IMG/VR virus record: IMGVR_UViG_3300027716_000003
Length of the DNA stretch: 47,187 bases
Source of the DNA: a virus
Strand: one strand, 5' to 3'
A program made the position numbers and the translations under genes. The notes under the pieces are model-generated. The model had not been told where the DNA came from. It did not search any database and was given only the letters and a program-made list of their open reading frames with translations. This document shows, one piece after another, positions 1 to 47,187 of the stretch; within the stretch, counting starts at the first letter, position 1, and each line of letters starts with the position of its first letter.

Positions 1-99
1 GGGTGGCTCTCGGTCACGAAGGGGTAGGCGTGGTTTCGAAGGCGCCCCTCCTCGATGTCGACGCGCGAGACCTGGCGCGCCTCTCGCGCTCGGAGCGCG
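1..99. repeat. Terminal direct repeat, copy 1 (identical to 47089..47187); most likely an assembly overlap of a circular molecule
   Basis: Base-by-base comparison of both ends: 99/99 identical. Confidence 0.95.
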
Positions 100-335
100 A
101 CGACCGCCTGCTCCTCGAAGGTGACGAGCGACGCCTCGCCCGGCGCGGGCAAGTCGGCGGCCGTGAGCTTTCCGATCTTCACGCGAGCCACGTCGAGCTC
201 GGCCGTGTCGAACTGCACCCGGCGCCGCACCGCGACGCCGTCGATATCGAGCGTCACGCGCGCCCCCGTCTTGCCCGACGCGAGACGGACGGGCCTCGGC
301 TTGCGGGGGCGACCGGGCCTCTTCTTCTCGGTCAT
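1..335 (-). CDS. int: Tyrosine integrase, N-terminal part (continues from 47088 across the circular junction; full gene 1746 nt / 581 aa)
   Basis: Minus-strand ATG at 335 gives MTEKKRPGRPRKPRPVRLASGK...RNHAYPFVTESHP, which runs without a stop into the 45678..47105 ORF. Nt 1-99 duplicate 47089-47187. Confidence 0.85.
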   Translation of the reverse strand, partial: MTEKKRPGRPRKPRPVRLASGKTGARVTLDIDGVAVRRRVQFDTAELDVARVKIGKLTAADLPAPGEASLVTFEEQAVVALRAREARQVSRVDIEEGRLRNHAYPFVTESH

Positions 336-610
336 GGCTTCACCTTCTTCGCTGCCTCGCGCCACGCGAGCGCCGCTTCGCCGGCGAGCTCTGCCAGCTG
401 CTCGACGGTGAGCTGCGCCGCGAGGCCCGTGACGAGGTCCGTGACGCTGCCGCGCCAGACCGTGACGGGCTCCTTTCCCTGCCGCTCGACGATGAACAGG
501 CCTTGGCGAGCGAGCACCGAGCAGAGGGTCGCGACCGGCACGAGCGCGAGCTTCTCCTCGAGCTCGTCGAGCGGCACGATGACCGGGTCGGAAAACACGC
601 GCGTGCTCAC
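332..610 (-). CDS. Small protein immediately upstream of and overlapping int (position analogous to an excision/directionality factor); function unproven
   Basis: GTG at 610 overlaps the upstream stop (GTGA), and its own stop overlaps the int ATG (ATGA). An alternative ATG lies at 643. Confidence 0.55.
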   Translation of the reverse strand: MSTRVFSDPVIVPLDELEEKLALVPVATLCSVLARQGLFIVERQGKEPVTVWRGSVTDLVTGLAAQLTVEQLAELAGEAALAWREAAKKVKP

Positions 611-951
611 GCCGCACCGTCCTTTCGCAGCCACGACAGGCACGCCTCGAGCTCGAAGCGCGGGCTCTCGCCGAGCCTGAGGTGCGGCATGCCCTGCCGC
701 CGCATCTTATCGACCATGCTCGAGCTGCAGCCGAGGCAGAGCGCCAGGGCCTCCCGATCGAGCAGCACCGGCTGAGCCCGCCGCTCGCCGAGCGCGCTCT
801 CGACCGCCTGCCGCACGAGCCCCGCGAGCTCGCCCCGCGTCACCGTGAACGCCGGGGCCGTGTCGTTGTCCGCCGCACCCCCGCCCACACCCCCCGAAGT
901 CTCGCCCAAGCGCAAGAACTTCGGGCGCTTCTGCCCTCTGCCTTCTTCCAC
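607..951 (-). CDS. MerR/excisionase-type HTH DNA-binding protein (Xis-like)
   Basis: C-terminal LLDREALALCLGCSSSMVDKMRRQGMPHLRLGESPRFELEACLSWL resembles Xis/AlpA-type HTH. Start chosen at GTG 951, preceded by GGAGG; GTG 843 is an alternative. Confidence 0.6.
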   Translation of the reverse strand: MEEGRGQKRPKFLRLGETSGGVGGGAADNDTAPAFTVTRGELAGLVRQAVESALGERRAQPVLLDREALALCLGCSSSMVDKMRRQGMPHLRLGESPRFELEACLSWLRKDGAA

Positions 952-1008
952 GGCCACCTCCGTCAGGGCGTCTCCACCCTGGATTACCTCGGGCGCGTCC
1001 CTGCTCCC

Positions 1009-1047
1009 GGTGTCGACGCGGTGTCGACATGCGTCTACGTGTAGACG
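1009..1047. promoter_or_regulatory. Operator-like module cluster: GGTGTCGACGCG, GTGTCGAC and palindrome GCGTCTAC-GT-GTAGACG
   Basis: Direct repeat GTGTCGAC (1011-1018, 1021-1028) and perfect inverted repeat GTCTAC/GTAGAC (1033-1046). The same modules recur at 44809-44837. Confidence 0.5.
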
Positions 1048-1120
1048 AAGCGTGACGGAAGTGTATAGAGTCCCCGAGGGGGGCTGCCTCACTTTGGTAC
1101 GCGGGTGGAGTCGGGACAGA

Positions 1121-1225: not shown

Positions 1226-1465
1226 ATGACCCCCAATACCGAACTGACCACCGCGCAGAAACAAGCACTCGTCGCCTACCGCCGCCATTGCGACGAACAC
1301 GACGGCGAGCCCCCGACCGTGCGCTGGCTCGCCGACGCCCTCGGCAAGAGCCCCAACGCCGCCCACCAGCTCATTCAACGCTTGCGAGAGAAAGGTTACC
1401 TGTCGATGAAACCCGTCACCATCATCCGCTCCAAACTCACCGCCAAGGGCAGGGCCGCACGATGA
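1226..1465 (+). CDS. LexA N-terminal-domain-like winged-helix DNA-binding protein (79 aa, no S24 peptidase domain)
   Basis: LTTAQKQALVAY...GEPPTVRWLADALGKSPNAAHQLIQRLREKGYL parallels E. coli LexA (LTARQQEV...[34 protein letters not shown]). Confidence 0.7.
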   Translation: MTPNTELTTAQKQALVAYRRHCDEHDGEPPTVRWLADALGKSPNAAHQLIQRLREKGYLSMKPVTIIRSKLTAKGRAAR

Positions 1466-5246: not shown

Positions 5247-5590
5247 TGCGCGAGGTCTCGTCCGACGAGATGACGACGGCGGCGGCTCTCGGCATCCTCG
5301 ATCGCGCCGTGGATCCGATCGGGCACTGGTGGCTCTATAAGCGCGTACTCGGCGACGGTCGCGTGCTCTATCTGCAAGCGATGCTGGGCAACAACCTACG
5401 CATCAGCCTGAGCAGGCACGAGCACGACATGGGCTTTCACTCAAACTACTGCTTCCACGACGTGAGAGAAGCGTGGCGCTCCGCGCTCGGCTGGGATGGC
5501 GAGGGCGATCCGGAGGGCTGGGTACGGCATATCGAGACCGGGCGGCGTCGTCCCGATGGCGACGCGGAACGGGAGTACGTGAGGCCATGA
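5246..5590 (+). CDS. Hypothetical protein (114 aa)
   Basis: GTG 5243 or ATG 5246 overlaps the upstream TGA. Contains the motif GWVRHIETGRRRPDGD. Confidence 0.55.
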   Translation: MREVSSDEMTTAAALGILDRAVDPIGHWWLYKRVLGDGRVLYLQAMLGNNLRISLSRHEHDMGFHSNYCFHDVREAWRSALGWDGEGDPEGWVRHIETGRRRPDGDAEREYVRP

Positions 5591-6713: not shown

Positions 6714-7159
6714 GCGATCCCCCACGGGGCGTCATCGTAGCCCGGCAGGCGGCGCACGGCGTGCGCCTCGATGGCGTCTACGAGCTTGCGGGCGGCGCTG
6801 TCCTGCCATCCCGGGTGTTCGCACGCCTGATAGGCGTAGCAGTGGCAAGCCTTGATGATGGCGAGGCGGGGCGTCATGCGCGCATCGGCCTCGATGGTGC
6901 GCGGGACATCGAAGCCGTCGTAGGCGGCCGCGTCGAGGTGATGGTCGCGCGGGTAGCGGTGGGCGAGGCTCTTCAGATTCTCGCTCGCGAGCATCGAGGC
7001 AACCCGCGAGATGGTGCGCCGGGTGGCGCCGGGCTTGTGTTCAAAGCCATCCCGCTCGAGCTCAGTGCGCAGCTCATACGGCACGGCCTCGAGCAGGTGG
7101 GCCACGGCGTACGCGGCGAGGATGCCGAGGTGACGATCGGAGCACATGAAAGCGGACAT
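6710..7159 (-). CDS. Conserved phage/plasmid protein of unknown function (149 aa)
   Basis: Good RBS (AAGGA) before ATG 7159. Contains the motif CHCYAYQACEHPGW...LPGYDDAPW. Confidence 0.7.
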   Translation of the reverse strand: MSAFMCSDRHLGILAAYAVAHLLEAVPYELRTELERDGFEHKPGATRRTISRVASMLASENLKSLAHRYPRDHHLDAAAYDGFDVPRTIEADARMTPRLAIIKACHCYAYQACEHPGWQDSAARKLVDAIEAHAVRRLPGYDDAPWGIA

Positions 7160-9145: not shown

Positions 9146-9490
9146 TCACCAGCGGTTGTCTGCCGTGATCTCTCGCTGGTAGATCGTTTCGGCGTTCATC
9201 TCGGCCAGCTGAGCCACATCGATGCGACCCGCCAAACGCTCGCAGACGCCCGTTGCCTTGAACGCGCAGAAGTTTGCGAGCGCCCGCATGGCGGCGTCCG
9301 TGGTTTGATTGAAGCGCCGGGCGAACGCAGCGAGCTCACCGCCGTTGGCGCGCGCCTCGAGATCGGCGCCAAGCGCGGCGTAGTTGATCGGCGAGTGCGG
9401 GTCGCTCGGGTCGTTGCGGTTGGCATCGACGAGGGCGGTGAAGTAGGAGCGATCGTAGGGGGCAAGCGTGGCGAATCGGTGGGCTGTCAT
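9146..9490 (-). CDS. Hypothetical protein (114 aa); first gene after the non-coding gap
   Basis: ATG at 9490; ORF-track protein of normal composition. Confidence 0.6.
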   Translation of the reverse strand: MTAHRFATLAPYDRSYFTALVDANRNDPSDPHSPINYAALGADLEARANGGELAAFARRFNQTTDAAMRALANFCAFKATGVCERLAGRIDVAQLAEMNAETIYQREITADNRW

Positions 9491-9734
9491 GACTGGTAAT
9501 CTCGGTTGGATGGCTGAACGGTATGGTGATGGGAGCGAGAAACGGCGGGGGAATCAGTCGAATCTCTGCGCGTTTCGCACTGCCGACTCAGTAATTTTGC
9601 CACGGAGCTAGGTGCTAGGCACCCGTTATCCGAGCTCAGGGCGCAGATAGCTCGCCATTCTGGGACGATCCGGGGGGCAGGGCTGTCCGCTGCCTAAACC
9701 CGGGGCGGCGTCAAGCGGAAAGCGCGGCGCGCAA

Positions 9735-9894
9735 CCACTGAACGCCCTGTGCAACTCCTCAGCTGTTCAGTGCCATGCGCCACTGCTCAGAAGGTGCAGC
9801 TCCTCGAGTGTTCAGTGCTTTCCGTTCAGCTGCGCACTCGCCACTGAACGCGCGACACCTGAACGCGCGGCTGCAGCTCCTCAGGTGTTCAGTG
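9735..9894. promoter_or_regulatory. Repeat array: three 37-39-nt units (9735-9772, 9781-9817, 9856-9894) plus extra half-sites; seven GTTCAG/CTGAAC hexamers in about 155 nt
   Basis: The three units share C(A/C)CTGAACGC..TGCA(A/G)CTCCTC(A/G)(A/G)(C/G)TGTTCAGTG. GTTCAG at 9765, 9810, 9824 and 9887; CTGAAC at 9738, 9844 and 9859. Confidence 0.7.
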
Positions 9895-9920
9895 GTCGCC
9901 GGGTACCCCCTGGCCCCCCA

Positions 9921-9938
9921 CCCCGCCCAGAGGCGGGG
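9921..9938 (-). terminator. GC-rich hairpin (CCCCGCC-N4-GGCGGGG) about 30 nt downstream of the 9968 stop; possible terminator without U-tract
   Basis: Stem read directly. No T-run follows on the minus strand. Confidence 0.3.
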
Positions 9939-9967
9939 CGAACCACCCCATCCCACCGATCTAAAAT

Positions 9968-10201
9968 TTACAACTCGGACCCAGCAGGCCGGACCGGGCC
10001 GTAGACGCGGCAGCTCCGATGCGCCCGCCCGTACTCCCGCATGATGGCGACCGCCATCCCGATAGGCAGCGGGAGCGCCGCCCGGAACACGTCCCCGCAG
10101 TGCATGCAGACCAGCACCATCTGCTCGTCGGGCAACACCATCCACACGCTCCGCGGCGAGCTGTAGTCGTAGACGACGTGGCTGTCCTTCGCCTTGCTCA
10201 T
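9968..10201 (-). CDS. Small Cys-containing protein (77 aa)
   Basis: ATG 10201 overlaps the upstream stop (ATGA). Contains CMHCGD...HRSC. Confidence 0.55.
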   Translation of the reverse strand: MSKAKDSHVVYDYSSPRSVWMVLPDEQMVLVCMHCGDVFRAALPLPIGMAVAIMREYGRAHRSCRVYGPVRPAGSEL

Positions 10202-33146: not shown

Positions 33147-33493
33147 GCATCGCACTCGGCAACCGCTACACGTTCAGCTCGCCCACCTTCCAGACCTCGG
33201 CGGGGACGGCGACGGATCCGACGACCGTCAAGTTCTACATGCGCGAGCACGTGGACGGGACCGAGCTCGAATGGACCTACAACGCTTCGCCGACGGCGGG
33301 CACGCACTACCCCGTGGGTATGCAGCCCATCGTGCGGGCGAGCGCGGGGGTGTACTCGGTCGCCTACGACAGCCGCAAGCCCGAGCGGGTGACGGGGTTT
33401 TGGGTGGGGACGGGCACGGTCTACGACGCCGTGCAGGAGACGCTCTTCGTGCGGCACGCAGAACTCGCGCTCATCGACCCGCCGAGTAGCTGA
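33143..33493 (+). CDS. Hypothetical tail-module protein (116 aa)
   Basis: ATGA-coupled start; TGATG-coupled to the fibre gene. Confidence 0.5.
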   Translation: MSIALGNRYTFSSPTFQTSAGTATDPTTVKFYMREHVDGTELEWTYNASPTAGTHYPVGMQPIVRASAGVYSVAYDSRKPERVTGFWVGTGTVYDAVQETLFVRHAELALIDPPSS

Positions 33494-36400
33494 TGGCTGA
33501 TTGCGACGACCGGCAGCTATCGGAGGCCCAGCGCCAGGCGGGCTACCAGAACCAGCGCACGGGGGTGCAGCAGGCGGTGCGCCCCTTCAGCGGGCGGCCG
33601 ACGCTCGACAACCTCATCGACTACATCAACCGCGAGCTGTTCCCCGCGGTGAAGGCGACGCGGAACAAGGTCAACGACGTTTACCTACAGACAACGGACA
33701 ACGCCCCATCGGGCAATCCGCTGCAGTACTACTTCTCGACCGAGACGGCGGCTGCTGATCCCACGGCGGGGCGCGTGCGGCTCAACGCGAGCCCGCAGGA
33801 TACCGCGACGACGCTCCGGGTGAGCGAGCAGAACGCGCGACTCGTCGACGCACGGCCGTGGCTCGAGGTGATGGCGGGCGGCGCGACCACGCCGCTCGGG
33901 GTGGTGACGCTGAGCGACGCCGTGAACCCGGCGAGGTTCATTCGGTTCGACCTCAACTCGATGACCGATCAAGGGGTGTACTGGGATCTCTCCGTCACCG
34001 TCATCGAGAGCAGCCATGACGATCCCTTCGTCGACGGCGGCGGGCTCGTCATCTCGTTCATCCCTGGCGTCGCGAGCACGGGCACGACGGTGCCCGCGGG
34101 CGCGCTCACGCCCATCGGCCCCAACACCGTGCTCGGCAACCCGACGGCAAGCACGGCGGCGCCGACCGAGATCGCCATCGACGATCTGAGCGTGCTCGGC
34201 AGGGCGGGGCTCGCGGGGACCGGCAACCTCGAAGACATCACCGTGCCCGGGACGGGCACGTTCACCGGCGAGAGCGTGTTTCTCCGTTCGCCGTCGGTGC
34301 GCACGTCGCTGCAATTCCGGAACTTCACGCTCGGCGATCTGCCGCTCATCAGCGACAACCGCTTCGTCGGCAACGTGACGGGCGCCACGGCACGGCCCGC
34401 ATACACCGATCTCGCGCAGCTCGCGCAGGATCTATTCGGCATCGGCTGGGATGCGGCGACCCACAACTTCAGGCTCAGCGACGTGCTCGACAACACGTTC
34501 ATGGGCAACACTTCGGGCGCGACGACGTACCCCCAGCCCACGCCTCTTTCCGACCTCGATAGCATCAGCATCACGTATGAGAATGTCGGCAAGTCGTTCG
34601 TGCGCGAAGCGCTGACGGGCGACGTCACGGCGCTGCAGAACAACAACACCGTCACCGTCAACGCGAACGCCATCACGAACGCGAAGCTCGACGACATGGC
34701 GGCCAACACCGTCAAGGCAAACGCGACGGCGAGCACGGCGGATCCGACCGACTTCCCCGTCGGCACGAACAGCGTACTCGGCCGCGTCGCAGGCAACATC
34801 GTCGCCGCCCAGGTCGTGACGGCGCAGATCGCGGACGCGGCGGTGACCAACGCCAAGCTCCGCGACAGCGCGGGGATATCCGTCATCGGTCGCGCGACGA
34901 CCACCACGGGCGTGCCGGCGGACATCGTCGCGACGTTTGGGACCGGCGTCGTGTTGCGCGAGAGTGGCAGCACGATCGGGTGGGGCACGGTCGCTACCGC
35001 CGGTATCGCCAACAACGCTATCACGAACGCCAAGCTCGCTCAGATGGCGCAAAGCCGCGTCAAGGGCCGAGCCGAGGGGGCAGGCACGGGCGACCCCACC
35101 GATCTGACTCCAACCGAGGTCGTCAGCATTATCGACGGCGAGAATGCGACGTGGACGGGCGCGCACTCCTTCACGGGGGCGAGCCATACCGTCAACGTGA
35201 GCGGCGCGGCCAACACGACCGCGGGCGCGACGAGCACGATCCAGACGTCGGCGGGCAACCTGATCCAGGCGTCGGCGGTCGACTACTTGCTGACGGCGCA
35301 AGCCGACGTCGTCATCAACGCGGGCGACACGGCCGGCGGGGTCGCGATTCATGCGGGACTGACCCCCAAGACGGCGGCGAACGATAACCGCGTCACCATC
35401 ACCGCCGACGATCAGGTCGTGCTCGAACCGACGGGCTCGTGCCGCATCTTTACGGGTGGCGTCGAGCGCGTCGAATATGAGTCGACGGGCGCGTGGCAGA
35501 TATCGGGCGCCGTGGGGACCACGGGTCACACCATCGTCACGGCGGGAGCGGGAGCGCCGCCCGCCTGGGGCCAGCTACCGACGGCGGGCATCGCCGACGA
35601 TGCCGTCACGAACGCAAAGCTCCGGAACTCGGGCGCGCTCAGTGTCATCGGGCGAAGCGCGAACAGCACGGGCGATCCGGCGGACATCAGCGCGGTCGCC
35701 GCCTCGGGCTCGGTGCTACGCGAGAGCGGGAGCACGGTAGGGTTTGGCACCATCGCGACAGCGGGCATCACGGATGCGGCCGTGACGAACGCGAAGCTCG
35801 CCGACATGACGGCAGGGACCGTCAAGGGCCGTCAGATCGACGCCACAACGGGTGTTCCGGTCGATCTGACGGGGCTCGAGGTCGCCGAACTCATCCGCTT
35901 CGGCACCACCCAGGCGGTGACGCTCGCCGCGACTACCAACGACCAAACGCTCAACGCTGACACGACCGTCATGCGCATCACGCCCACCGGAGCGCAGACC
36001 CTTACGGGCATCACGGGCGGGGCGCAAGGACGCCTGTTGTTGCTCGAGAATATCGCGGCGGCGGGTAATCCTTTGACGCTCGCGAGCCTCGATGCGGGCT
36101 CGCTAACCGCGAACCGTCTACGCACGCCCGGTGGCGTCGCGCTCGTGCTCGGGTTTCGCGAGTCGGCGATCCTGCGCTGGGAAACGAACAACAACGACTG
36201 GCGTGTCGTGGCCGTGTCCCGCGCGACCGCGGTCGCCGATGCGGATTACGGCGATATCACGGTCACGAGCTCAGGCGCGACGTGGACCATCGACAACAGC
36301 GCCGTGACGCTTGCGAAGATGGCGAATCTCGCCGCCGGCACGGTCATCGGCAGGCAGATTGACGCGAGCACGGGCGTCCCGGTCGCGCTCGCGGGCGCCG

Positions 36401-38079
36401 AGCAGGGCGAGAACATCCGGTTTAACACGCGGCAGACCGTCGCGGCATCGGGCACGCTCGATATCACGCTCAACGATGACACCACCATACTCGTGCTGCA
36501 GCTCTCGGCGGATGCGACGCTACGCTCGATCAGCAACACGGCGAGCGGTGATGGGCGTCTCCTGCGCATCGAGCACGATTCGGGCTCGGCGTTCACGCTG
36601 ACACTCGGTCACAACCTGGCGACGCCCACGTTCTTCCCGCTCTACAACTCCGACGAGGCGGACATGCAGGTCCGGCGGGGCTCGACGGTCGTCTATCGCT
36701 CGCGGTCAGGGTTCTGGCGGCCGGAGATCCCGAGTTCGCGGATGCGAGTTCGCAAGAACTCGACCGGCACGGTGTTCGATCGCGGGCGGTTCAATCTCAT
36801 CGAGGGAACGGGCGTTACCCTCACGGTCACCGACGATAGCTCGAACAACGAGGTCGACGTCACCATCACGGGCGGCGTCGTCAGCGACGGCGACAAGGGC
36901 GACGTCACGGTCAGTTCGACCGGCACCGTCTGGACGATCGACAACGACGTCGTCACCGACGCGAAGCTGCGCAACTCGGGGGCTCTCAGTGTCATCGGGC
37001 GCAGCGCGAACAGCACGGGCGATCCGGCGGACATCTCCGGCACGGCGTCGAGCGATCAGGTTCTGAGGGTCAGCGGCACGACGCTCGGGTTTGGCACCGT
37101 GGCGACGGCGGGGATTGCGAACAACGCCGTGACCGACGCGAAGATCCGCCAGAGCGCGGGGCTCACCGTCATCGGTCGCGCCGCGAACAGTACGGGCGAC
37201 GTCGCCGACATCGGGGCGGGCGTCGACGGGTACGTGCTGCGCCGCATCGGAACCCTGCTCGGGTTTGGCCCCATCGCAACGGCGGGCATCGACGACGACC
37301 AGGTCACGAACGCGAAGCTGCGCAATTCGGGGGCTCTCAGTGTCATCGGGCGCAGCGCGAACAGCACGGGCGATCCGGCGGACATCTCGGCGACAGCGGC
37401 GAGTGGCGCCGTCCTGCGCGAGAGCGGCAGCGCCCTTGGCTTTGGCACCATCGCGACGGCGGGCATCGCGGACGCGGCGGTGACGCTCGCGAAGCAAGCA
37501 AACCTCGCGCAGTCGACCATCATCGGCCGGGCAGAGAGCGCGGGCACGGGCGTGCCCCAGGCGCTCACGAGCACCCAGGTCGCGGCCATCATCGACGGCG
37601 AGCCGTTTACTTGGCTGAGTTCGCACACGTTCAACGGCACGAACCACACCGTCACCGCCAGCGCCGACATCACGCTCACCGCCGGCGGCACGTTGACGCT
37701 CTCCGCAACCACCCAGGTGCAGGCGACGAGCCCGACCCGGCTAGCGAGTTCCGTTGCTCTCGACGGCGTCACGAGCACGGCGACGACGGCGGCCAACGAC
37801 CTCGTGATTGGCTCCGTTTCGGCTGTACGTTTCACGGGGCCTGTCGATCCTCTGACGGGAATGGTGGCCGTGGTGGGCGGTCAAACAGTGCTCCTCGTCA
37901 ACGCGCATGCGTCGACAAACATGGGCGTTCACATGGAGAGCGCGAGTTCGACGGCGGCGAACCGCTTCGCCGGCGTCGGGACCTCGCGTGTCATTCGTCC
38001 CGGCGAGATGGCTCTCGCGTGGTACGACAGCACGAGCAGTCGGTGGCGCCTGCTCTGCCGCGACGAGGTCGACCTATGA
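33493..38079 (+). CDS. Tail fibre (1528 aa) built from reiterated (A/D)AVTNAKL... modules
   Basis: More than 10 copies of the AVTNAKL / ITNAKL / VTDAKL motif. Longer module NAKLRNSGALSVIGRSANSTGDPADIS...LRESGS.LGFGTIATAGI repeated. Last large late gene. Confidence 0.8.
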   Translation: MADCDDRQLSEAQRQAGYQNQRTGVQQAVRPFSGRPTLDNLIDYINRELFPAVKATRNKVNDVYLQTTDNAPSGNPLQYYFSTETAAADPTAGRVRLNASPQDTATTLRVSEQNARLVDARPWLEVMAGGATTPLGVVTLSDAVNPARFIRFDLNSMTDQGVYWDLSVTVIESSHDDPFVDGGGLVISFIPGVASTGTTVPAGALTPIGPNTVLGNPTASTAAPTEIAIDDLSVLGRAGLAGTGNLEDITVPGTGTFTGESVFLRSPSVRTSLQFRNFTLGDLPLISDNRFVGNVTGATARPAYTDLAQLAQDLFGIGWDAATHNFRLSDVLDNTFMGNTSGATTYPQPTPLSDLDSISITYENVGKSFVREALTGDVTALQNNNTVTVNANAITNAKLDDMAANTVKANATASTADPTDFPVGTNSVLGRVAGNIVAAQVVTAQIADAAVTNAKLRDSAGISVIGRATTTTGVPADIVATFGTGVVLRESGSTIGWGTVATAGIANNAITNAKLAQMAQSRVKGRAEGAGTGDPTDLTPTEVVSIIDGENATWTGAHSFTGASHTVNVSGAANTTAGATSTIQTSAGNLIQASAVDYLLTAQADVVINAGDTAGGVAIHAGLTPKTAANDNRVTITADDQVVLEPTGSCRIFTGGVERVEYESTGAWQISGAVGTTGHTIVTAGAGAPPAWGQLPTAGIADDAVTNAKLRNSGALSVIGRSANSTGDPADISAVAASGSVLRESGSTVGFGTIATAGITDAAVTNAKLADMTAGTVKGRQIDATTGVPVDLTGLEVAELIRFGTTQAVTLAATTNDQTLNADTTVMRITPTGAQTLTGITGGAQGRLLLLENIAAAGNPLTLASLDAGSLTANRLRTPGGVALVLGFRESAILRWETNNNDWRVVAVSRATAVADADYGDITVTSSGATWTIDNSAVTLAKMANLAAGTVIGRQIDASTGVPVALAGAEQGENIRFNTRQTVAASGTLDITLNDDTTILVLQLSADATLRSISNTASGDGRLLRIEHDSGSAFTLTLGHNLATPTFFPLYNSDEADMQVRRGSTVVYRSRSGFWRPEIPSSRMRVRKNSTGTVFDRGRFNLIEGTGVTLTVTDDSSNNEVDVTITGGVVSDGDKGDVTVSSTGTVWTIDNDVVTDAKLRNSGALSVIGRSANSTGDPADISGTASSDQVLRVSGTTLGFGTVATAGIANNAVTDAKIRQSAGLTVIGRAANSTGDVADIGAGVDGYVLRRIGTLLGFGPIATAGIDDDQVTNAKLRNSGALSVIGRSANSTGDPADISATAASGAVLRESGSALGFGTIATAGIADAAVTLAKQANLAQSTIIGRAESAGTGVPQALTSTQVAAIIDGEPFTWLSSHTFNGTNHTVTASADITLTAGGTLTLSATTQVQATSPTRLASSVALDGVTSTATTAANDLVIGSVSAVRFTGPVDPLTGMVAVVGGQTVLLVNAHASTNMGVHMESASSTAANRFAGVGTSRVIRPGEMALAWYDSTSSRWRLLCRDEVDL
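36961..37037 (+). repeat. Intragenic 77-nt repeat, copy A (76/77 identical to 37312..37388)
   Basis: Aligned by eye. Single C/T difference. Copies are 351 nt apart (in frame). Confidence 0.85.
37312..37388 (+). repeat. Intragenic 77-nt repeat, copy B; a more diverged copy lies at about 35614-35690
   Basis: Aligned by eye. Confidence 0.85.
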
Positions 38080-41368: not shown

Positions 41369-41576
41369 GGTCGACCTGCCATTCGAGCACGACGCCCTGT
41401 TCCCCGACGGCGAACTCGTCGTCGAAGGGCGCCGGGTAGACGCCGATCGCCGCATCCGAGGGGATATGGATCCCCTTCGCCTGCGCGATCTCGACGAGCT
41501 CGCGCAGCAGGATGGTGACGGTGACCCTCGTCGTGGTCTTGGACTCGGCCTTCACACGCCACCGATCGCTTTCCAT
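41349..41576 (-). CDS. Hypothetical protein (75 aa)
   Basis: ORF track. Overlaps both neighbours by 20-25 nt. Confidence 0.45.
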   Translation of the reverse strand: MESDRWRVKAESKTTTRVTVTILLRELVEIAQAKGIHIPSDAAIGVYPAPFDDEFAVGEQGVVLEWQVDHAQKQG

Positions 41577-43300
41577 GCGGCGGACGCATCCCAGTCTTCA
41601 TCGTGCAGGTCGTCGCCCTTGTGCCAGAGCTCGAGCGCCGCGCCGAAGCGCATCGCCGCATTGCGCAGGGCATCTCCGATAATCTCCTTCTCGCGCGCGC
41701 CCGGGTCCTGCCCGTTCTTGCTCTGCGCGTTGCCGTAGCCGAGCCGCGTCACGCCGCAGACGGTGAGCTTGATCCAGAGACCGCCGGTCGCGTCGAAGAG
41801 CGGCAGCCCCTTCGGGTCGACGGCCATCGGCTCCCACGTCCACATGGGGTCGGCCTCGAGCAGCCTGTCGGTGAGCGCGGCGTGCCCGACGTAGTCGAGG
41901 TGAATGATGCGCGGGTGGTGCCAGCCGCCGCACACGTTGCAATTGCGCTTCTCGTTCGGCGGGCAGTTGTTCTGCTCCTTCGTGCCTTTCGGCAGCTTGC
42001 TAATCTGATGCTTCTCGAACGGGGCGCGCAGCAGGGCGAGCCCGCGCAAGTTGGCCTTGGCGGGCCCAGGCATGGCCAGGACGGGAGCCGGAGGATTGGG
42101 CACTGCACCGTTCTGTGTAGACGTGATGGTGCGCACGAATGGCGCAGCGGTCTGGGCGGCGCGGGGCTCGCCGAAAGGGATGAACTCCTCCCGCTTTGCC
42201 TTCCGCCACTCCTCCTCGCGCTTCTCCTCCTGCTCGTGCTGCTCGCGTGCCGCGCGGTCGGCGTTGCGCTCGCGCTCGTGCTCGGCACGGGCGGCCGCCT
42301 CCTGGCGCAGGAACTCGTCGGCGCGCGGGTCCTTGCCGATGAGGGGCTCACGCGGCACCGCCCCGCCGCGCGGCCCCTGCTCATACTCGGGCTTGCTCGC
42401 CTGGAAAGCGGGCTCCGCGTCTGCGGCGGCGGCGGCCGCGCTGAGCTCGTGCCGCGAGGGCTCGGGCATGGGCGTGGCGTTGCCCATGAAGCCGTCGAAC
42501 GCGAGCTCGACCTGGGGCGCCATCGTCTCGGCCACCTTCGGCTCGGCGCGCACGAGCAGGGCCTCGGCGTCGAGGTCGAGCTTCGTGTCGAGGGTCGTGA
42601 GCTTGAGCGACAAGACGAGCTGTTCCCAGTTCGCGCGCAGCGACTCCCACACCTTGCCCGAGCCGGTGGCGAGGTGCTCGGCGATGCCCGTCAGCGTCTT
42701 GTGCTCGCCGATGAGGCCGGCGGCTTTGACGGGGCCGATGCCCGGCACGCCCGGCACGTTGTCGCTCTTGTCGCCCGTGAGCGCCAGGAACAAGGGGATC
42801 TGCTCGGGGGTGACCTCGAACTTCTCCTTCACTTCCTTCGGGCCCCGGAAGTATTCGGCGCGCTCGCCGTGCTTGGGGACGAGCTGCAGCACGTTGTCGG
42901 TGACGCACTGAGCGAGATCCTTGTCGGCGCCGACGAGCCAGACCTCCGCCCAGCTCTCGCCGTAGATGCGGGCTAGCGTCGCGATGACGTCGTCGCCTTC
43001 CTTCCCCTTGACGCGCGCCATCGGGTAGCCGCGACTCTTGAGCGCGTCGTAGAGCCAGCGCTTCTGATAGATCTCGGTCGTCTCGGGCTCGACGCGGTTC
43101 GCCTTGTAGTCGGGGAATACTTCCTTGCGATCGTAGGGCGGGTAGTCGAGGCAGAGCACGACGCGGTCGACGCGGGCCGCGACTCGCTCAATCTCGGCGA
43201 GCGTGTTCTGTCCGCCGGCGTTGGGGTTCGCCTCGTAGGTGCGCTTGAAGAGGCAGCCGACGTCGACGAGGGCGATGGTCTTGTTCTGGGGCATGGTCAT
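41552..43300 (-). CDS. Fusion protein: FEN-type 5'-3' exonuclease (PIN+H3TH) + disordered linker + Rad52-like single-strand annealing domain
   Basis: N-terminal: LCLDYPPYDRKEVFPDYKANR, EGDDVIATLA, VGADKDLAQCV, ALTGDKSDNVPGVPGIGPVKAA. C-terminal: LDYVGHAALTDRL...WIKLTVCGVTRLGYG...KEIIGDALRNAAMRFGAALELW parallels the Rad52 core (YIEGH..I...N..FG..GW...V.V.L.DG..HEDVGYG...KEAVTD.LKRALR.FGNALG). Confidence 0.7.
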   Translation of the reverse strand: MTMPQNKTIALVDVGCLFKRTYEANPNAGGQNTLAEIERVAARVDRVVLCLDYPPYDRKEVFPDYKANRVEPETTEIYQKRWLYDALKSRGYPMARVKGKEGDDVIATLARIYGESWAEVWLVGADKDLAQCVTDNVLQLVPKHGERAEYFRGPKEVKEKFEVTPEQIPLFLALTGDKSDNVPGVPGIGPVKAAGLIGEHKTLTGIAEHLATGSGKVWESLRANWEQLVLSLKLTTLDTKLDLDAEALLVRAEPKVAETMAPQVELAFDGFMGNATPMPEPSRHELSAAAAAADAEPAFQASKPEYEQGPRGGAVPREPLIGKDPRADEFLRQEAAARAEHERERNADRAAREQHEQEEKREEEWRKAKREEFIPFGEPRAAQTAAPFVRTITSTQNGAVPNPPAPVLAMPGPAKANLRGLALLRAPFEKHQISKLPKGTKEQNNCPPNEKRNCNVCGGWHHPRIIHLDYVGHAALTDRLLEADPMWTWEPMAVDPKGLPLFDATGGLWIKLTVCGVTRLGYGNAQSKNGQDPGAREKEIIGDALRNAAMRFGAALELWHKGDDLHDEDWDASAAWKAIGGV

Positions 43301-43606: not shown

Positions 43607-43906
43607 TTACCAGCCCGGAACGGGACAGTGGTGATAGAGCGAGCCCTCGGGGGCGGGCCCCGCGCCGGGCTTCCACTCGGGCGGGTAGTAGTCGGGCGCG
43701 TTCGGCCAGGGGTCGAGTATCTCGCAGAGCACGGGGCTGCTCCTGCGCTTGCCGTCCTCGAGCAGCCGCACGCGGGGCGGCTTCTGCCGGAGCTCGAGCG
43801 GCCAGCGCAGACCATCGAGCACGACGAAGAAGACGTCGCCCTTCTTCGCGTACTGGAAGGTCAGGCTCCACGGCACCGGGTGCATGCGCACGGTGGGCGG
43901 CATCAT
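43607..43906 (-). CDS. Hypothetical protein (99 aa)
   Basis: ATGA-coupled start at 43906. Confidence 0.5.
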   Translation of the reverse strand: MMPPTVRMHPVPWSLTFQYAKKGDVFFVVLDGLRWPLELRQKPPRVRLLEDGKRRSSPVLCEILDPWPNAPDYYPPEWKPGAGPAPEGSLYHHCPVPGW

Positions 43907-44151
43907 GTGACCACCTTGAGGTAGCGCAGGTAGTCGCGGCCCGCTTCGGTGAGCGCGAGCCCGCGCGCGATGCGCGGCGTCTTCGTGAGCATGCCCTTGC
44001 GCACGAGGGCGATCACGCTGCAGAAGCCGGTGTGAGGGCTGGTCGTCCCGAAGTGCTTGCCCATCTCCTCGAGCGTCGGGGGGTAGCCGTGCTCGGCGAC
44101 GAACGAGCCGATGAAGCGCAAGACCCGGGCCTGCTTTGGGGTGAGGCTCAC
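43903..44151 (-). CDS. LexA N-terminal-domain-like winged-helix protein (82 aa, no peptidase domain)
   Basis: LTPKQARVLRFIGSFVAEHGYPPTLEEMGKHFGTTSP...LVRKGMLTKTPRIARGLALT parallels the LexA DNA-binding domain. GTGA-coupled. Confidence 0.7.
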   Translation of the reverse strand: MSLTPKQARVLRFIGSFVAEHGYPPTLEEMGKHFGTTSPHTGFCSVIALVRKGMLTKTPRIARGLALTEAGRDYLRYLKVVT

Positions 44152-45278
44152 GCGACCTCCGGGATGGCGCCGCCCGGCGGGACCGGGCCCCACTGCTCGA
44201 GCTGCTCGAGGGTGAGCCTGCCCGTCGGGTCGAAGCCCGCGCGCGCTTGTTTGGCGGCGACGGTGAGCCGCTCGCCGAGCACGTCGCGCCTCGACAGCGG
44301 GGCGGGCAAGGGCTGGGGGTGGTCAGCGAGCACACCTTTCAGCAGAGCCTCGAGCGGGAGCCCGTGCTTGGCCGCGAACGCCCTCTGGCGCGCGTCGGGC
44401 TCGAAGGGCTCCACCGGGAGCGCCGGGCCACGGAAGCCGCTCCTAGGGGCCGTAGCGGCGGAGCGTTGGGCATCCTTCGCCCGGTTCGTCTCCTCCCACG
44501 TTCGCCAGTTGCCGAACTGCTGCCTCACCCACTCGCGTTGATCGCGCACGCCCGACCGCCCGCCGATGCTGGCGAGGTTGCGAGCGGAGGCGAGGCGCTC
44601 GCGGAACCACTCGCGGCTCACGCCGGCGAGCACGGCTTCGTCCTCGAGCCCCGTCTCGTCGAGGCCTTCGAGGTCGTGGAAGCGGCGCACGACGGGGATG
44701 GTGTCGAGCTCTTCGTTATCGAAGCCCTCGCGCGCGGGAGGTACAACAACTTCAGAAGAGGGTTTGGGTTTAGGTTTCGGTTTAGGTGCGTCTACGGTTT
44801 CGCTACTCGCGTCTACGTGTGGACGGGTGTCGACGCGCTCACCGGTCGCGAGGAAGTGATCCTCGGCGTCGTACGGCAGCGGGCCGGTCTCCTCGGGGAA
44901 CGGCAAGGGCAGCTGCTTCGCGCGCTTCTGCTTGGCCCAGTTGCGCTTGCGTGCCTTCTCGGCCTCGCCCTTGGCGCGCTCGCGGTAGGCGACGAAGTTG
45001 ACGATGTGCCAGCCGCGCTCGACCTTGATCGCGCGACGCCCTTCGAAGTCGGGCGTCGAGGAGTAGGGGTCGGGGCTCTCGATGAGAGCGATGGCGGCCT
45101 TCGCCTGGTCGAGGGTGACGCCGGCCTGCTGCGCGACGCCGGGCACGGTGCCGACGACGAAGCCCTCGGGGTCGGCCATGAGCAGGAACCAAATCCAGAC
45201 GCAGCGCGTGGCCGGGTCAGCCGCCCACATGCTGCTCGTGAGGAAGTCGCGGAAGACGGGGGTGTAGGGATGCCTCAT
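44148..45278 (-). CDS. Replication initiation / replisome-organizer-like protein (376 aa)
   Basis: The N-terminal FRDFLTSSMWAADPATRCVWIWFLLMADPEGFV resembles the phage replisome-organizer N-domain. Central PKPKPKPKP linker. Position in the replication block. Confidence 0.45.
   Translation of the reverse strand: MRHPYTPVFRDFLTSSMWAADPATRCVWIWFLLMADPEGFVVGTVPGVAQQAGVTLDQAKAAIALIESPDPYSSTPDFEGRRAIKVERGWHIVNFVAYRERAKGEAEKARKRNWAKQKRAKQLPLPFPEETGPLPYDAEDHFLATGERVDTRPHVDASSETVDAPKPKPKPKPSSEVVVPPAREGFDNEELDTIPVVRRFHDLEGLDETGLEDEAVLAGVSREWFRERLASARNLASIGGRSGVRDQREWVRQQFGNWRTWEETNRAKDAQRSAATAPRSGFRGPALPVEPFEPDARQRAFAAKHGLPLEALLKGVLADHPQPLPAPLSRRDVLGERLTVAAKQARAGFDPTGRLTLEQLEQWGPVPPGGAIPEVA
44761..44837. 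promoter_or_regulatory. Candidate origin region inside the organizer gene: (GGTTTN)x4 followed by GCGTCTACG, GCGTCTACGTGTGGACG and GGTGTCGACGCG
   Basis: Read directly. The 17-mer is 16/17 identical and the 12-mer 12/12 identical to modules at 1009-1047. Confidence 0.4.
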
Positions 45279-45481: not shown

Positions 45482-45681
45482 ATGCCCTCCGGCAGGGGCA
45501 AACCATCCTCCGGCAGGGGCAAACCATCCAGCCTAGCGAGCAGAGTCTCGGCGTGCCGGCGCAGCTCGTCGTTGCTCTGGCGCAGCTCGGCGACCTGCTC
45601 GCGCAGCGCGGTGATGGTGTCGCGCATGACGGCGATGGTGTCGTCGGTGTAGGTGCTTTCGGTTCGGCTGAACTCGGTCAT
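45478..45681 (-). CDS. Coiled-coil protein (67 aa) with duplicated DGLPLPE C-terminus
   Basis: ATGA overlap with the int stop. Helical sequence ALREQVAELRQSNDELRRHAETLLARL. Confidence 0.5.
   Translation of the reverse strand: MTEFSRTESTYTDDTIAVMRDTITALREQVAELRQSNDELRRHAETLLARLDGLPLPEDGLPLPEGM
45488..45529. repeat. Perfect 21-nt tandem duplication TCCGGCAGGGGCAAACCATCC x2
   Basis: Read directly, at 45488-45508 and 45509-45529. Confidence 0.9.
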
Positions 45682-47187
45682 GACTTCCTCCGGCGGGCGT
45701 CGAGTGAGGAGACGTTGTCGGGGGCTACCGCACGTCGGCGCTTGGCGACCTCCAAGAGGGCCGTGGCGGAGTCGAGATCGCCCTCGCTCATCGCCAGGCG
45801 CACGGCGAGCTCGAGGGCCTCGTCGAGGCTGCCGAGTAATGGCCGGGAGTTCTGGCCGGCGGCAGTCGCACCGAGTGGTTTGGCGTCGTTTTCGAGGTCA
45901 CCCGAAACGACTCTTCCATGCGAAAACCCCTTAAAAACAGCTTCGGTCTTGGACTCCGAAGCCAAGGGTCGAAGGTTCGAATCCTTCCGGGCGCGCAGCG
46001 ATATCATTGAGCTTTCTCCTTCCTTGGATACTTTCTCAGACCGAGTTTCGGCCGAGAGCTGGCCAATATTCGGTGAGCCGAAGGTGCTCGCTGGGTGAGC
46101 AGAAGGGGCGATGGTCATCACCTGGCGCTCACCTTCCCGCGACTGACCCGAGGGCAAGAGTCTGCTCGGCACCGCCCCCGCCGGCACCGCGAGCGCCTCC
46201 GTCGGGTTCTGCAGATAGCGGCCGTGGGCGCGCAAGTCGGAGGCGTGCCCCGTCAAGGCCGCGCTCGTCTGCACGTTGACCCCCGCCTTGCCGAGCGCCT
46301 GGCTCCACGCCCGTCGCCAAGAGTGGAAGTCGACGGGCAGCGTGTACTTCGTCTCCTCGAACAGCTCCCGCTCCTTACCCGTCATCGGGCGACCCGGCAC
46401 CCAGCGGCCGACGGGGCCCCTCTGCCCGCGGCCGGCGTCTGGGTCCCAGCGCTCGATACCGAGCGCGCGCCGGAGGTCCTGGCGCATCGCGTGGGCGTGG
46501 CTGTCCTGCGTCTCGCGCAGGCCGCCGGCGCTCTCTCCCCGGAGCAGCGGGAACACCGGACCCTTGCGGGGCCGCCCCTGGTGCACCCACCAGCGATAGA
46601 CGACCGGAGCGAGCCCCTCGGGCACCTCCATGCGCTGGGGCGCCGCGCCCTTCGTGCGGGGCACCCACGCCTCGGCGAACGAGGGCTCTCCGCTCGCGTC
46701 CTCGTCGAGCAGAAAGTTATCCTCCCAGGTCGCGACGTGCAGATCGTTGGTGCGCTCGCCGCCGAGGCAGCGCGCGATGCAGCTCATCGTCTGGCGCATG
46801 AGCACCCCGACGCGGTGCCGGGGCACGGGGTGCTGCCAGGCGAGATACGCGAGCAGGACCTCGTCGCGCGCCACGGCCCGCGTCTTGTCGAGCGTCGCCT
46901 TGAAGAGCGGCATCCGCGCCTTCGGATCGTCCATGGTGGCGAGCCCCGCGCTCTCGAACGTGAACTTGAGCGCCTTTCGGAGATGCTTCACGTGGTCGTC
47001 CGAGTAGCCCCGGCTGCGCTGATCCTCGAGCAGCGCCTTCACTTCGTCCGGGGTGATGGCCGCGATGGGGCGCGCTCCGAATGGCAGTGGGTGGCTCTCG
47101 GTCACGAAGGGGTAGGCGTGGTTTCGAAGGCGCCCCTCCTCGATGTCGACGCGCGAGACCTGGCGCGCCTCTCGCGCTCGGAGCGCG
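45678..47187 (-). CDS. int: Tyrosine integrase, main part (N-terminus continues at 335..1); carries a 178-aa extension after the catalytic Tyr
   Basis: R (GGERTNDL), HSWRR, TGH and HGRYLQ, with the Tyr codon at 46215-46217. The ORF continues to 45678 through the tRNA-like attP core. Confidence 0.9.
   Translation of the reverse strand, partial: ALRAREARQVSRVDIEEGRLRNHAYPFVTESHPLPFGARPIAAITPDEVKALLEDQRSRGYSDDHVKHLRKALKFTFESAGLATMDDPKARMPLFKATLDKTRAVARDEVLLAYLAWQHPVPRHRVGVLMRQTMSCIARCLGGERTNDLHVATWEDNFLLDEDASGEPSFAEAWVPRTKGAAPQRMEVPEGLAPVVYRWWVHQGRPRKGPVFPLLRGESAGGLRETQDSHAHAMRQDLRRALGIERWDPDAGRGQRGPVGRWVPGRPMTGKERELFEETKYTLPVDFHSWRRAWSQALGKAGVNVQTSAALTGHASDLRAHGRYLQNPTEALAVPAGAVPSRLLPSGQSREGERQVMTIAPSAHPASTFGSPNIGQLSAETRSEKVSKEGESSMISLRARKDSNLRPLASESKTEAVFKGFSHGRVVSGDLENDAKPLGATAAGQNSRPLLGSLDEALELAVRLAMSEGDLDSATALLEVAKRRRAVAPDNVSSLDARRRKS
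45949..45995 (+). other. attP core candidate: 3' portion of a tRNA-Arg(CCG)-like sequence (anticodon arm to discriminator), antisense inside int
   Basis: TTGGA/CTCCGAA/GCCAA anticodon arm (anticodon CCG; the 31-39 pair is mismatched), variable GGGTC, T-arm GAAGG-TTCGAAT-CCTTC, and acceptor CGGGCGC plus G. No D-arm and no 5' acceptor GCGCCCG upstream. Confidence 0.7.
47089..47187. repeat. Terminal direct repeat, copy 2 (identical to 1..99)
   Basis: Base-by-base comparison. Confidence 0.95.

Follow-up and report, generated by a model that had tools for sequence, protein, structure and literature searches.

A short stretch of DNA in the middle of a phage gene raises the question of whether it is kept for the peptide that it encodes or for a role of its own as DNA. 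The stretch, at 44761-44834, lies in the minus-strand gene 44148..45278 of the IMG/VR virus record IMGVR_UViG_3300027716_000003, all 47,187 nucleotides of which (the window) were analysed, and it encodes part of the linker between the domains of an unannotated 376-aa protein. We propose that this element is probably a theta-type replication origin situated inside the linker-coding part of its own initiator gene. A preliminary description of the sequence had already placed an origin within the initiator gene at the interdomain linker, and this placement is supported in silico by DNA-level conservation, by the architecture of the element and by the initiator C-domains of relatives. The genome has 68% GC, and bases 1-99 are the same as bases 47089-47187, an exact terminal redundancy of 99 bp; the window is thus a circularly closed genome of 47,088 bp. 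Owing to this circularity, the element and a second locus with related words (1009-1047) are separated by ~3.3 kb, not by 43.8 kb. Both lie within one minus-strand operon, and the redundancy junction falls within the integrase gene.

The words that had been reported for 44761-44837 and 1009-1047 were all located exactly at those positions. The run (GGTTTN)x4 at 44761-44784 reads (CCNAAA)x4 on the gene strand (minus), where it encodes PKPKPKPK; as an A/T-rich tract adjoining the repeats, as in origins of the lambda O/ori type, it is a putative DNA-unwinding element (DUE). It is followed by GCGTCTACG (44788-44796), GCGTCTACGTGTGGACG (44809-44825) and GGTGTCGACGCG (44826-44837), the last of which has a second copy at 1009-1020. 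Read along the gene strand, the element is GTCGACaccc GTCCACac GTAGACgcga GTAGCGaaacc GTAGACgca and then CCTAAA CCGAAA CCTAAA CCCAAA. The array is therefore made of five hexamers, starting at 44790, 44801, 44811, 44819 and 44829, with spacings of 11, 10, 8 and 10 bp. The last iteron, GTAGACGCA on the gene strand (44787..44795, minus), abuts the A-rich repeat, and the iteron GTAGACGC(G) (44809..44816 on the same strand) is 21 bp away from it. Between them is a degenerate middle iteron, GTAGCG, inside AGTAGCGAAACC (44801..44806, minus), which reads CGCTAC on the plus strand; the earlier word list, otherwise correct, had overlooked this repeat. The distal and more variable repeats at 44819..44834 are GTGGAC, an imperfect inverted partner of the repeat at 44811, and GTCGAC. 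The dip in GC described for the middle of the gene is present (0.53 at 44730-44819 versus ~0.70 in the remainder of the gene), and (AAACCN)3 is found genome-wide only at 44761-44789, with 0.02 occurrences expected. The array spans residues ~149-165, within a linker modelled at a predicted local distance difference test (pLDDT) score of <50. The peptide VDASSETVDA is a read-through of three repeats at 10/11-bp spacing: the outer two repeats are in frame and give Val-Asp, and the middle one is out of frame and gives Ser-Ser.

These sites are non-random. Clusters of at least three GTMKAC hexamers (M = A/C, K = G/T) within 60 nt occur, genome-wide, only at the two loci; in 300 Markov-1 simulations, which served as the null, four GTMKAC in 60 nt were never reached and three were reached six times. 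For GCGTCTACGTGTAGACG, the word at 1031..1047, four matches were found at up to three mismatches, against 0.16 expected. Genome-wide word counts and simulations thus exclude chance as the source of the co-occurrence of the modules at the two loci, which had been claimed not to be accidental. The shorter unit GCGTCTAC/GTAGACGC has eight copies genome-wide versus 1.46 expected, and further single copies lie at 6774, 10001, 24787, 26347 and 41436 in mixed orientation to the genes. Stoperator sites, such as those of gp71 of mycobacteriophage L5, are many asymmetric sites spread across a genome in one orientation relative to transcription; this type of site was rejected here, as the sites cluster at two loci and the five others are single and of mixed orientation.

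For the comparison with relatives, 97 metagenomic homologues of the 376-aa protein were available, none of them annotated and many on ~47-kb contigs. About 20 distinct homologous loci (designated by L numbers) were fetched, the codon test used 18 homologous genes, and the DNA alignment, A2, contained 21 elements. In the protein alignment the linker is hypervariable apart from an island, VDASSETxDAPKPKPKP. The codons of this island stand apart from those of the rest of the genes: in the 18 homologues, Lys is AAA in 64/65 cases within the island and in 21/240 elsewhere in the same genes, and the GC content of third codon positions is 0.43 inside and 0.88 outside. Other rare A-ending codons are used as well (Ala GCA, Glu GAA, Val/Leu GTA/CTA); the Val/Leu codons keep the third-position A while their first base varies, and the third positions of the Pro codons drift freely. 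The repeat peptide itself is PKPK in most relatives, TKTKTK from (ACN AAA)n in L008 and SKSKSK from (TCN AAA)n in L024. In L009, L027 and L030, which share the N-domain alone with the window protein, CTAGACGCACC(GAAACC)n is kept and is read one base out of phase as ARRTETETE.

The DNA, in turn, is strongly constrained. A core, GTAGACGCGAGTAGCGAAACC[C/G]TAGACGCACCnAAACCnAAACC, is at least 90% conserved in alignment A2, as is AGTAGCGAAA in the middle iteron region, and the flanks are unconserved. Around 20 relatives have five hexamers 8-11 bp apart that end in TAGACGCA and are followed by (CCNAAA)n, and the A-rich run invariably begins 3 nt past TAGACGCA. Within the element, the last iteron is the best-conserved word, [C/G]T[A/C]GACGCA, present in ~20 relatives including the frame-shifted L009 and L027, plus L028. 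GTAGCG (degenerate in the window) or CTAGCG is a full repeat unit in L008, L024, L006, L009 and L028; L028 (58% GC) has seven ACTAG(A)CG repeats ~10-11 bp apart and then an (AGAAAG)n run, right after the N-domain. The distal repeats (44819..44834 in the window) vary among relatives in number and orientation, which is typical of binding-site arrays. Across relatives of 58-69% GC with different C-domains, the element is kept. Sliding windows of synonymous identity discriminate weakly (0.85 versus a background of 0.65), because codon bias is strong everywhere; the informative tests were the comparison of rare codons and that of frame and recoding. The preliminary description would have been contradicted by relatives in which the modules were conserved no further than the protein requires, and the opposite was observed, since synonymous sites, recoding and frame change all preserve the DNA. 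Because the DNA is kept through recoding and frame change, a peptide motif and protein-required conservation are excluded, and the in-gene element is, as judged from these alignments, conserved as DNA independently of peptide and reading frame.

The protein encoded around the element has been less easy to place. Since neither Pfam nor PHROGs gave a match, its earlier label, 'replisome-organizer-like', needed independent support. An AlphaFold model based on a 43-sequence alignment predicts an N-terminal winged helix with a long helix (residues ~1-121, with 6-121 at a pLDDT of about 90), a disordered linker (residues ~128-191, pLDDT <50) that holds the element, and a helical C-domain. In this model, the product has the architecture of the lambda O/G38P type: winged helix, disordered linker and helical C-domain. 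A fold search of BFVD gave uncharacterised phage proteins as the best matches (5e-7) and, lower down (2e-3 to 6e-2), DUF1376, helix-turn-helix (HTH), 'Replication initiator' and 'replication protein O' entries, the last being weak at E 0.06. Stronger support comes from relatives with the N-domain alone in common (42-44% identity, E 1e-24 to 1e-30), the C-domains of which match the PHROG 'replication initiation protein' (L009, 1.5e-16; L027, 4.9e-8; L028, 1.5e-16); the PHROG 'replisome organizer' was matched by L027 alone, at E 0.61. The gene after the initiator homologue in L028 matches Pfam Inhibitor_G39P, the helicase loader of SPP1 (8e-7, above the gathering score), whereas the gene next to the window initiator encodes a LexA-type winged helix-turn-helix (wHTH) protein; in L009, primase-like and helicase-like open reading frames (ORFs) follow the homologue. 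The modelled architecture, the replication C-domains of the relatives and the G39P-type loader neighbour together support the label.

A comparison of ~30 early-region proteins with PHROGs revealed neither another replication initiator nor a helicase, primase or polymerase, and returned only a single-stranded DNA-binding protein (SSB) and a FEN-SSAP fusion. Against 50,697 GenBank phages, neither megablast of the 43-47 kb region nor tblastn of the 376-aa protein gave a match, and no characterised relative exists; a scan of genome contigs found a single match in a metagenome-assembled genome, binned as Microcella. Upstream of the distant initiator homologue in L009, at 5376-5590, lie ~18 tandem copies of a 12-bp unit, GACGCTGKCCCY, that starts with GTAGACGC; this array is probably a coding repeat on one strand.

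The second locus occupies the intergenic region between a divergent LexA-type gene and the Xis-like gene, a region that is syntenic in relatives. At 1031..1047 there is a palindromic operator-like sequence, GCGTCTAC-GT-GTAGACG (that is, GCGTCTACGTGTAGACG), with the same half-site as the iterons, and the perfect palindrome that had been reported near xis, GTCTAC-GT-GTAGAC, is present inside it. Two direct copies of GGTGTCGAC (GTCGACACC on the gene strand), 11 bp apart, adjoin the palindrome at 1009..1028. A -10-like TATACA block on the minus strand (1062..1067) belongs to a putative early leftward promoter, which heads an operon containing the xis-like, int, o67, o68, initiator, LexA-wHTH and FEN-SSAP genes. 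A scan of 850-1300 for sigma-70 promoters and terminators found nothing and, as no sigma-70 consensus is matched, the promoter status is taken from the conservation of TATACA alone. Because the palindrome (1047..1031) follows TATACA, a bound dimer would cover about the transcription start of the leftward operon.

The arrangement recurs in relatives. A conserved intergenic block, ACCAAAATGAGGC-N17-CCTATACA-cttcGTCAC, is found in them, and GTCTAC-NN-GT[A/C]GACGCA, 15 nt downstream of TATACA, occurs in at least 14 genomes (the window, L001-L004, L007, L012, L014, L023, L033 and L035-L038), followed in relatives by one or two downstream copies of GT[C/A/G]GAC. In this unit, which can be GTCTAC-NN-GTAGACGCA, the right half-site shares its GCA extension with the last in-gene repeat. 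In the more distant loci, the copies sit directly upstream of the initiator start codon: L009 shows four GCTAGC/GCTAGAC repeats, spaced by 11 bp, ahead of a TTGACA box and another two past it; in L027, an inverted CTAGAC pair flanks a TTGACA box; and L028 has further CTAGAC copies. Thus, an inverted repeat of the iteron half-site is seen at the putative initiator promoter, as in autoregulation by iteron-binding Rep proteins. Across clades, the subtype of the repeats changes in step between the promoter and the in-gene array: GTAGAC/GTCGAC at most loci, GTAGCG in L008 and L024, and CTAGAC/GCTAGC in L002, L038, L009, L027 and L028. At the initial position of the half-site, where G or C occurs, promoter and gene agree imperfectly, with L007 as an exception.

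An A-rich run is absent from the second locus, which therefore looks like an operator and not like a second origin. Its sequence suggests an operator of the operon containing the initiator gene, that is, autoregulation. The proposal that the protein acting on the in-gene sites also governs this second site accordingly stands in so far as a conserved operator-like site with the shared motif is present; a role specific to lysogeny or excision is not the best reading, which is an operator of the initiator operon. On the side of the LexA gene (~1130-1215), GTGGACA / GGACA..TGTCC palindromes occur, as they do in the intergenic regions of L001, L002, L024 and L036; this motif is probably a separate operator set.

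A mechanism can be proposed on this basis. The winged-helix N-domain of the 376-aa protein would bind the phased T[A/C]GACGC(A) repeats, the five hexamers of which, being 8-11 bp apart, lie on one helix face. The resulting nucleoprotein complex would open the directly adjacent A-rich (CCNAAA)4 run, and with its C-terminal domain the protein would recruit the helicase and replisome of the host. It would also bind, probably as a dimer, the palindrome at 1031-1047 just downstream of the -10-like block, where its binding at the early promoter would exert negative feedback on the initiator's own operon. A further contribution could come from transcription across the origin, as at ori-lambda. We infer the identity of the binding protein, the melting of DNA at the element and the start of replication there. 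A further and rather doubtful idea is that the (NCNAAA)n run is more than a passive unwinding tract, being a sequence-specific, phase-locked recognition element like the DnaA-trios, which adjoin a DnaA box. Its grounds are the start of the run, fixed 3 nt past the last TAGACGCA, its retention across swapped C-domains, and the 6-nt period of 'xC-N-AAA', which is strict in every frame and peptide recoding. A non-AAA+ winged-helix initiator, or a helicase recruited by it, would then read one strand in 6-nt steps during opening, and the dipeptides of the linkers (PK, TK, SK and TE) would arise as a side effect of that DNA code.

The same sites could be accounted for without an origin. The TAGACGC sites might be operators of a separate regulator, such as a LexA-type wHTH protein, the 68-aa sigma-70 region-4-like protein or the Xis-like HTH protein, with the in-gene cluster as a secondary operator for looping to the promoter site or as a transcriptional roadblock. 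The promoter-side site is indeed a classic dimer-type palindrome just past a -10-like block, four small DNA-binding proteins are conserved in synteny, a LexA-like ORF also lies 2.2 kb from the L009 gene, and the 3.3-kb spacing is comparable to that of lambda OL-OR looping, the range of which includes it. Nevertheless, we regard this explanation as unlikely, since it leaves the rigidly spaced A-rich hexamer run, conserved at the DNA level, unexplained. Moreover, the repeats accompany the N-domain in L028 and L027 as well; in neither of these did tblastn detect a homologue of the LexA-like, o68-like or Xis-like kind, and the ORFs scanned in L028 showed no LexA-type domain. The intergenic region has other palindromes (GGACA..TGTCC), and a GTTCAG cluster in the genome is a better fit to GAAC/GTTC, the sequence that LexA clades often bind; L034, finally, keeps the in-gene array without the promoter palindrome. 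It is slightly less probable still that the initiator binds here for autoregulation, titration or handcuffing while the origin lies elsewhere, for example at the GTTCAGTG cluster at 9.7-9.9 kb. All GTTCAGTG copies lie in a non-coding stretch followed by a short AT-rich patch, the cluster is kept in at least five related contigs (L048, L050, L051, L057, L058, L061), and the local GC skew changes sign near 9.7 kb. The cluster sits in a ~0.7-kb gap (about 9491-10197) without a confident gene call; three of its five copies are inside ~23-nt repeats (TGCAGCTCCTCnnGTGTTCAGTG), and a conserved GGGTACCCCCTGG...GGGGCGAAC block comes after it, as does the AT-rich patch. The GTTCAG motif, however, has no relation to TAGACGC, the motif that accompanies the initiator N-domain; the neighbouring ORFs scanned against PHROGs yielded no initiator-like gene; and the arrangement of iterons and A-run at the domain linker is kept in distant relatives in different genome contexts. 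A search for relatives with the protein encoded at 9146-9490 found none. The GTTCAGTG cluster could be a packaging site, an alternative origin or, given the GAAC/GTTC preference of LexA clades, a LexA-type operator cluster.

Centromeres and packaging (pac) sites are also marked by short, phased repeats to which HTH or wHTH proteins bind, and the element might be a cis site of this kind for the winged-helix protein. This is very improbable: the terminase genes, at 12-14.5 kb, are ~15 kb from the element across the circular junction, the C-domains and neighbours in relatives are replication proteins, and a plasmid-type partition system is not expected because the phage integrates (tyrosine integrase, tRNA-like attP). 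A constraint on RNA or translation, through a structured mRNA or through rare codons that slow ribosomes at the linker, would agree with the concentration of rare A-ending codons in the interdomain linker, but is largely refuted and has an even smaller probability. The predicted fold is no better than that of shuffles (z = -0.23), Rfam gave no match, and specific words are kept that recur in non-coding promoter DNA and in another frame. A chance coincidence of words combined with a conserved peptide motif (VDASSETVDAPKPKPKP) is left with almost no probability, even though the protein alignment does show a conserved peptide island: simulations exclude chance, relatives retain the DNA but recode the peptide (TK, SK, TE), and synonymous sites are frozen on rare codons, which together refute it.

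Several observations weigh against an origin at 44761-44834. Up to E = 10, the 376-aa protein and both of its halves match nothing in Pfam or PHROGs, a sequence profile search of the PDB gave only noise, and Foldseek against the PDB returned only generic winged-helix regulators (E >= 0.6). GC skew at the 1-kb scale carries no interpretable origin or terminus signal, and the five genome copies of GTTCAGTG, all at 9736-9894 in mixed orientation, form an alternative origin candidate. The A-rich run is 24 nt long with 50% GC and a 6-nt period, hence only modestly 'AT-rich', and its periodicity could in part be a coding compromise. Other possible binders are encoded in the operon, namely the sigma-70 region-4 HTH, two LexA-type wHTH proteins and the Xis-like HTH. 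In L034, the most distant full-length homologue, the promoter palindrome is missing; as the array is kept there, the in-gene element is the primary and universal feature. The support for binding, melting and initiation, moreover, is in silico throughout.

The operon reads leftward from the conserved promoter-like block around 1062..1067, all on the minus strand. The Xis-like HTH gene (about 607..957) is followed by orf103 and by the tyrosine integrase gene, which runs from 335 to 45678 across the window junction and has a tRNA-like attP in its 3' extension. Next come o67 (a coiled-coil protein of 67 aa), o68 (68 aa, sigma-70 region-4-like) and, after them, the initiator-like gene. The LexA-type wHTH gene at 43903-44193 (96 aa) lies directly after it, and the FEN-SSAP fusion (582 aa, 41552-43300) is encoded further downstream. 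A second LexA-type wHTH gene (79 aa, 1226..1465, plus strand) is divergent from the early operon. The two LexA-type proteins are paralogous, consist of the DNA-binding winged helix alone without the cleavage domain, and are both syntenic in relatives. FEN-SSAP, a fusion kept across the phage family, combines a 5'-3' exonuclease (Pfam 5_3_exonuc_N/C) with a single-strand annealing domain (PHROG 3290; RecT in some relatives). The integrase ORF (45678-47088 and then 1-335, minus strand) extends ~180 codons beyond the region of the catalytic Tyr and includes a sequence resembling a tRNA 3' end, GGTTCGAATCCTTCCGGGCGCGC (plus strand, ~45940-46000), so the int reading frame itself appears to hold attP, as is the case in Myxococcus phage Mx8; ARAGORN found no intact tRNA. 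Elsewhere, a 1528-aa ORF (33493-38079, plus strand) has internal periodic repeats of ~175 nt and 49 nt (families D1 and D2) and is probably a repetitive tail-fibre or adhesin protein.

With the putative origin in the initiator gene, these data propose functions (origin-binding initiator, origin and operator) for a family of 97 homologues that so far comprises only uncultured soil and groundwater phages, together with a precise candidate binding motif, T[A/C]GACGCA. The element could also mark origins in related metagenomic phages. Overlapping codes are involved, in that a cis DNA element would dictate a disordered linker as PKPK, TKTK, SKSK or TETE according to lineage and frame, and conserved low-complexity peptide islands therefore need not be protein motifs. 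Iterons, an AT-rich tract and an autoregulatory copy, combined with an origin that lies in the gene of the initiator, make up a design that is well known; the present case is of the lambda O/ori and SPP1 G38P/oriL kind, and what is new is its instance in an unannotated protein family of uncultured phages. Less ordinary are, from the alignments, the deep conservation across relatives of one binding word together with a rigidly spaced 6-nt A-run, the constant phase in which the hexamer run follows the last repeat, and the clear evidence that a 'conserved' disordered peptide is the shadow of a DNA element.

The closest parallel is ori-lambda, in which iterons and an AT-rich tract lie in the middle of gene O, and O also binds single-stranded DNA of the AT-rich part (PMC7466680). 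In both systems the origin, putative in the present phage, is located in the part of the initiator gene that encodes the linker between an N-terminal DNA-binding domain and a C-terminal domain. Initiator-binding repeats, here putative, are directly followed by an A/T-rich, strand-asymmetric tract, and transcription from an early promoter through the origin and use of the host replisome would likewise be shared. There are distinguishable differences, though. The window protein has no similarity to Phage_rep_O (no Pfam match at E <= 10), and a P-like loader gene was not recognised in the window phage. Its repeats are cores of 6-9 bp at 8-11 bp instead of the four 19-bp palindromic iterons of lambda, and its A-rich tract, (CCNAAA)n with a 6-nt period, measures just 24 nt in a genome of 68% GC. 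An extra palindromic copy is present at the operon promoter, and to our knowledge lambda O does not autoregulate through such a copy.

SPP1 offers a second parallel: at oriL, AB boxes and a DUE are embedded in gene 38, and G38P, to which PF09524 has been assigned, binds a second locus too (PMC5737612). As in that phage, a non-AAA+ organizer would have its repeats and DUE within its own gene and a second discrete locus, binding to which is predicted here, and in L028, a distant relative, the gene of a G39P-type loader comes directly after the initiator homologue. Unlike G38P, the window protein matches neither PF09524 nor Phage_rep_org_N, recognisable G39P or G40P homologues are lacking in the window phage, and its second locus is palindromic, sits at a promoter and has no A-rich tract. 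The system also resembles iteron plasmids, the Rep proteins of which (pPS10 RepA, F RepE and P1 RepA) act on direct repeats at the origin and on an inverted half-site repeat at their own promoter. The present element belongs to a phage with an integrase rather than to a plasmid; its protein is modelled as a single winged helix with a linker and a helical domain rather than as a WH1-WH2 Rep fold, and its operator would control a long operon that includes the xis-like and int genes. Even so, direct repeats in the array and an inverted half-site repeat at the putative promoter of the initiator are common to both, and by analogy this arrangement suggests two modes of binding, one for initiation and one for autorepression.

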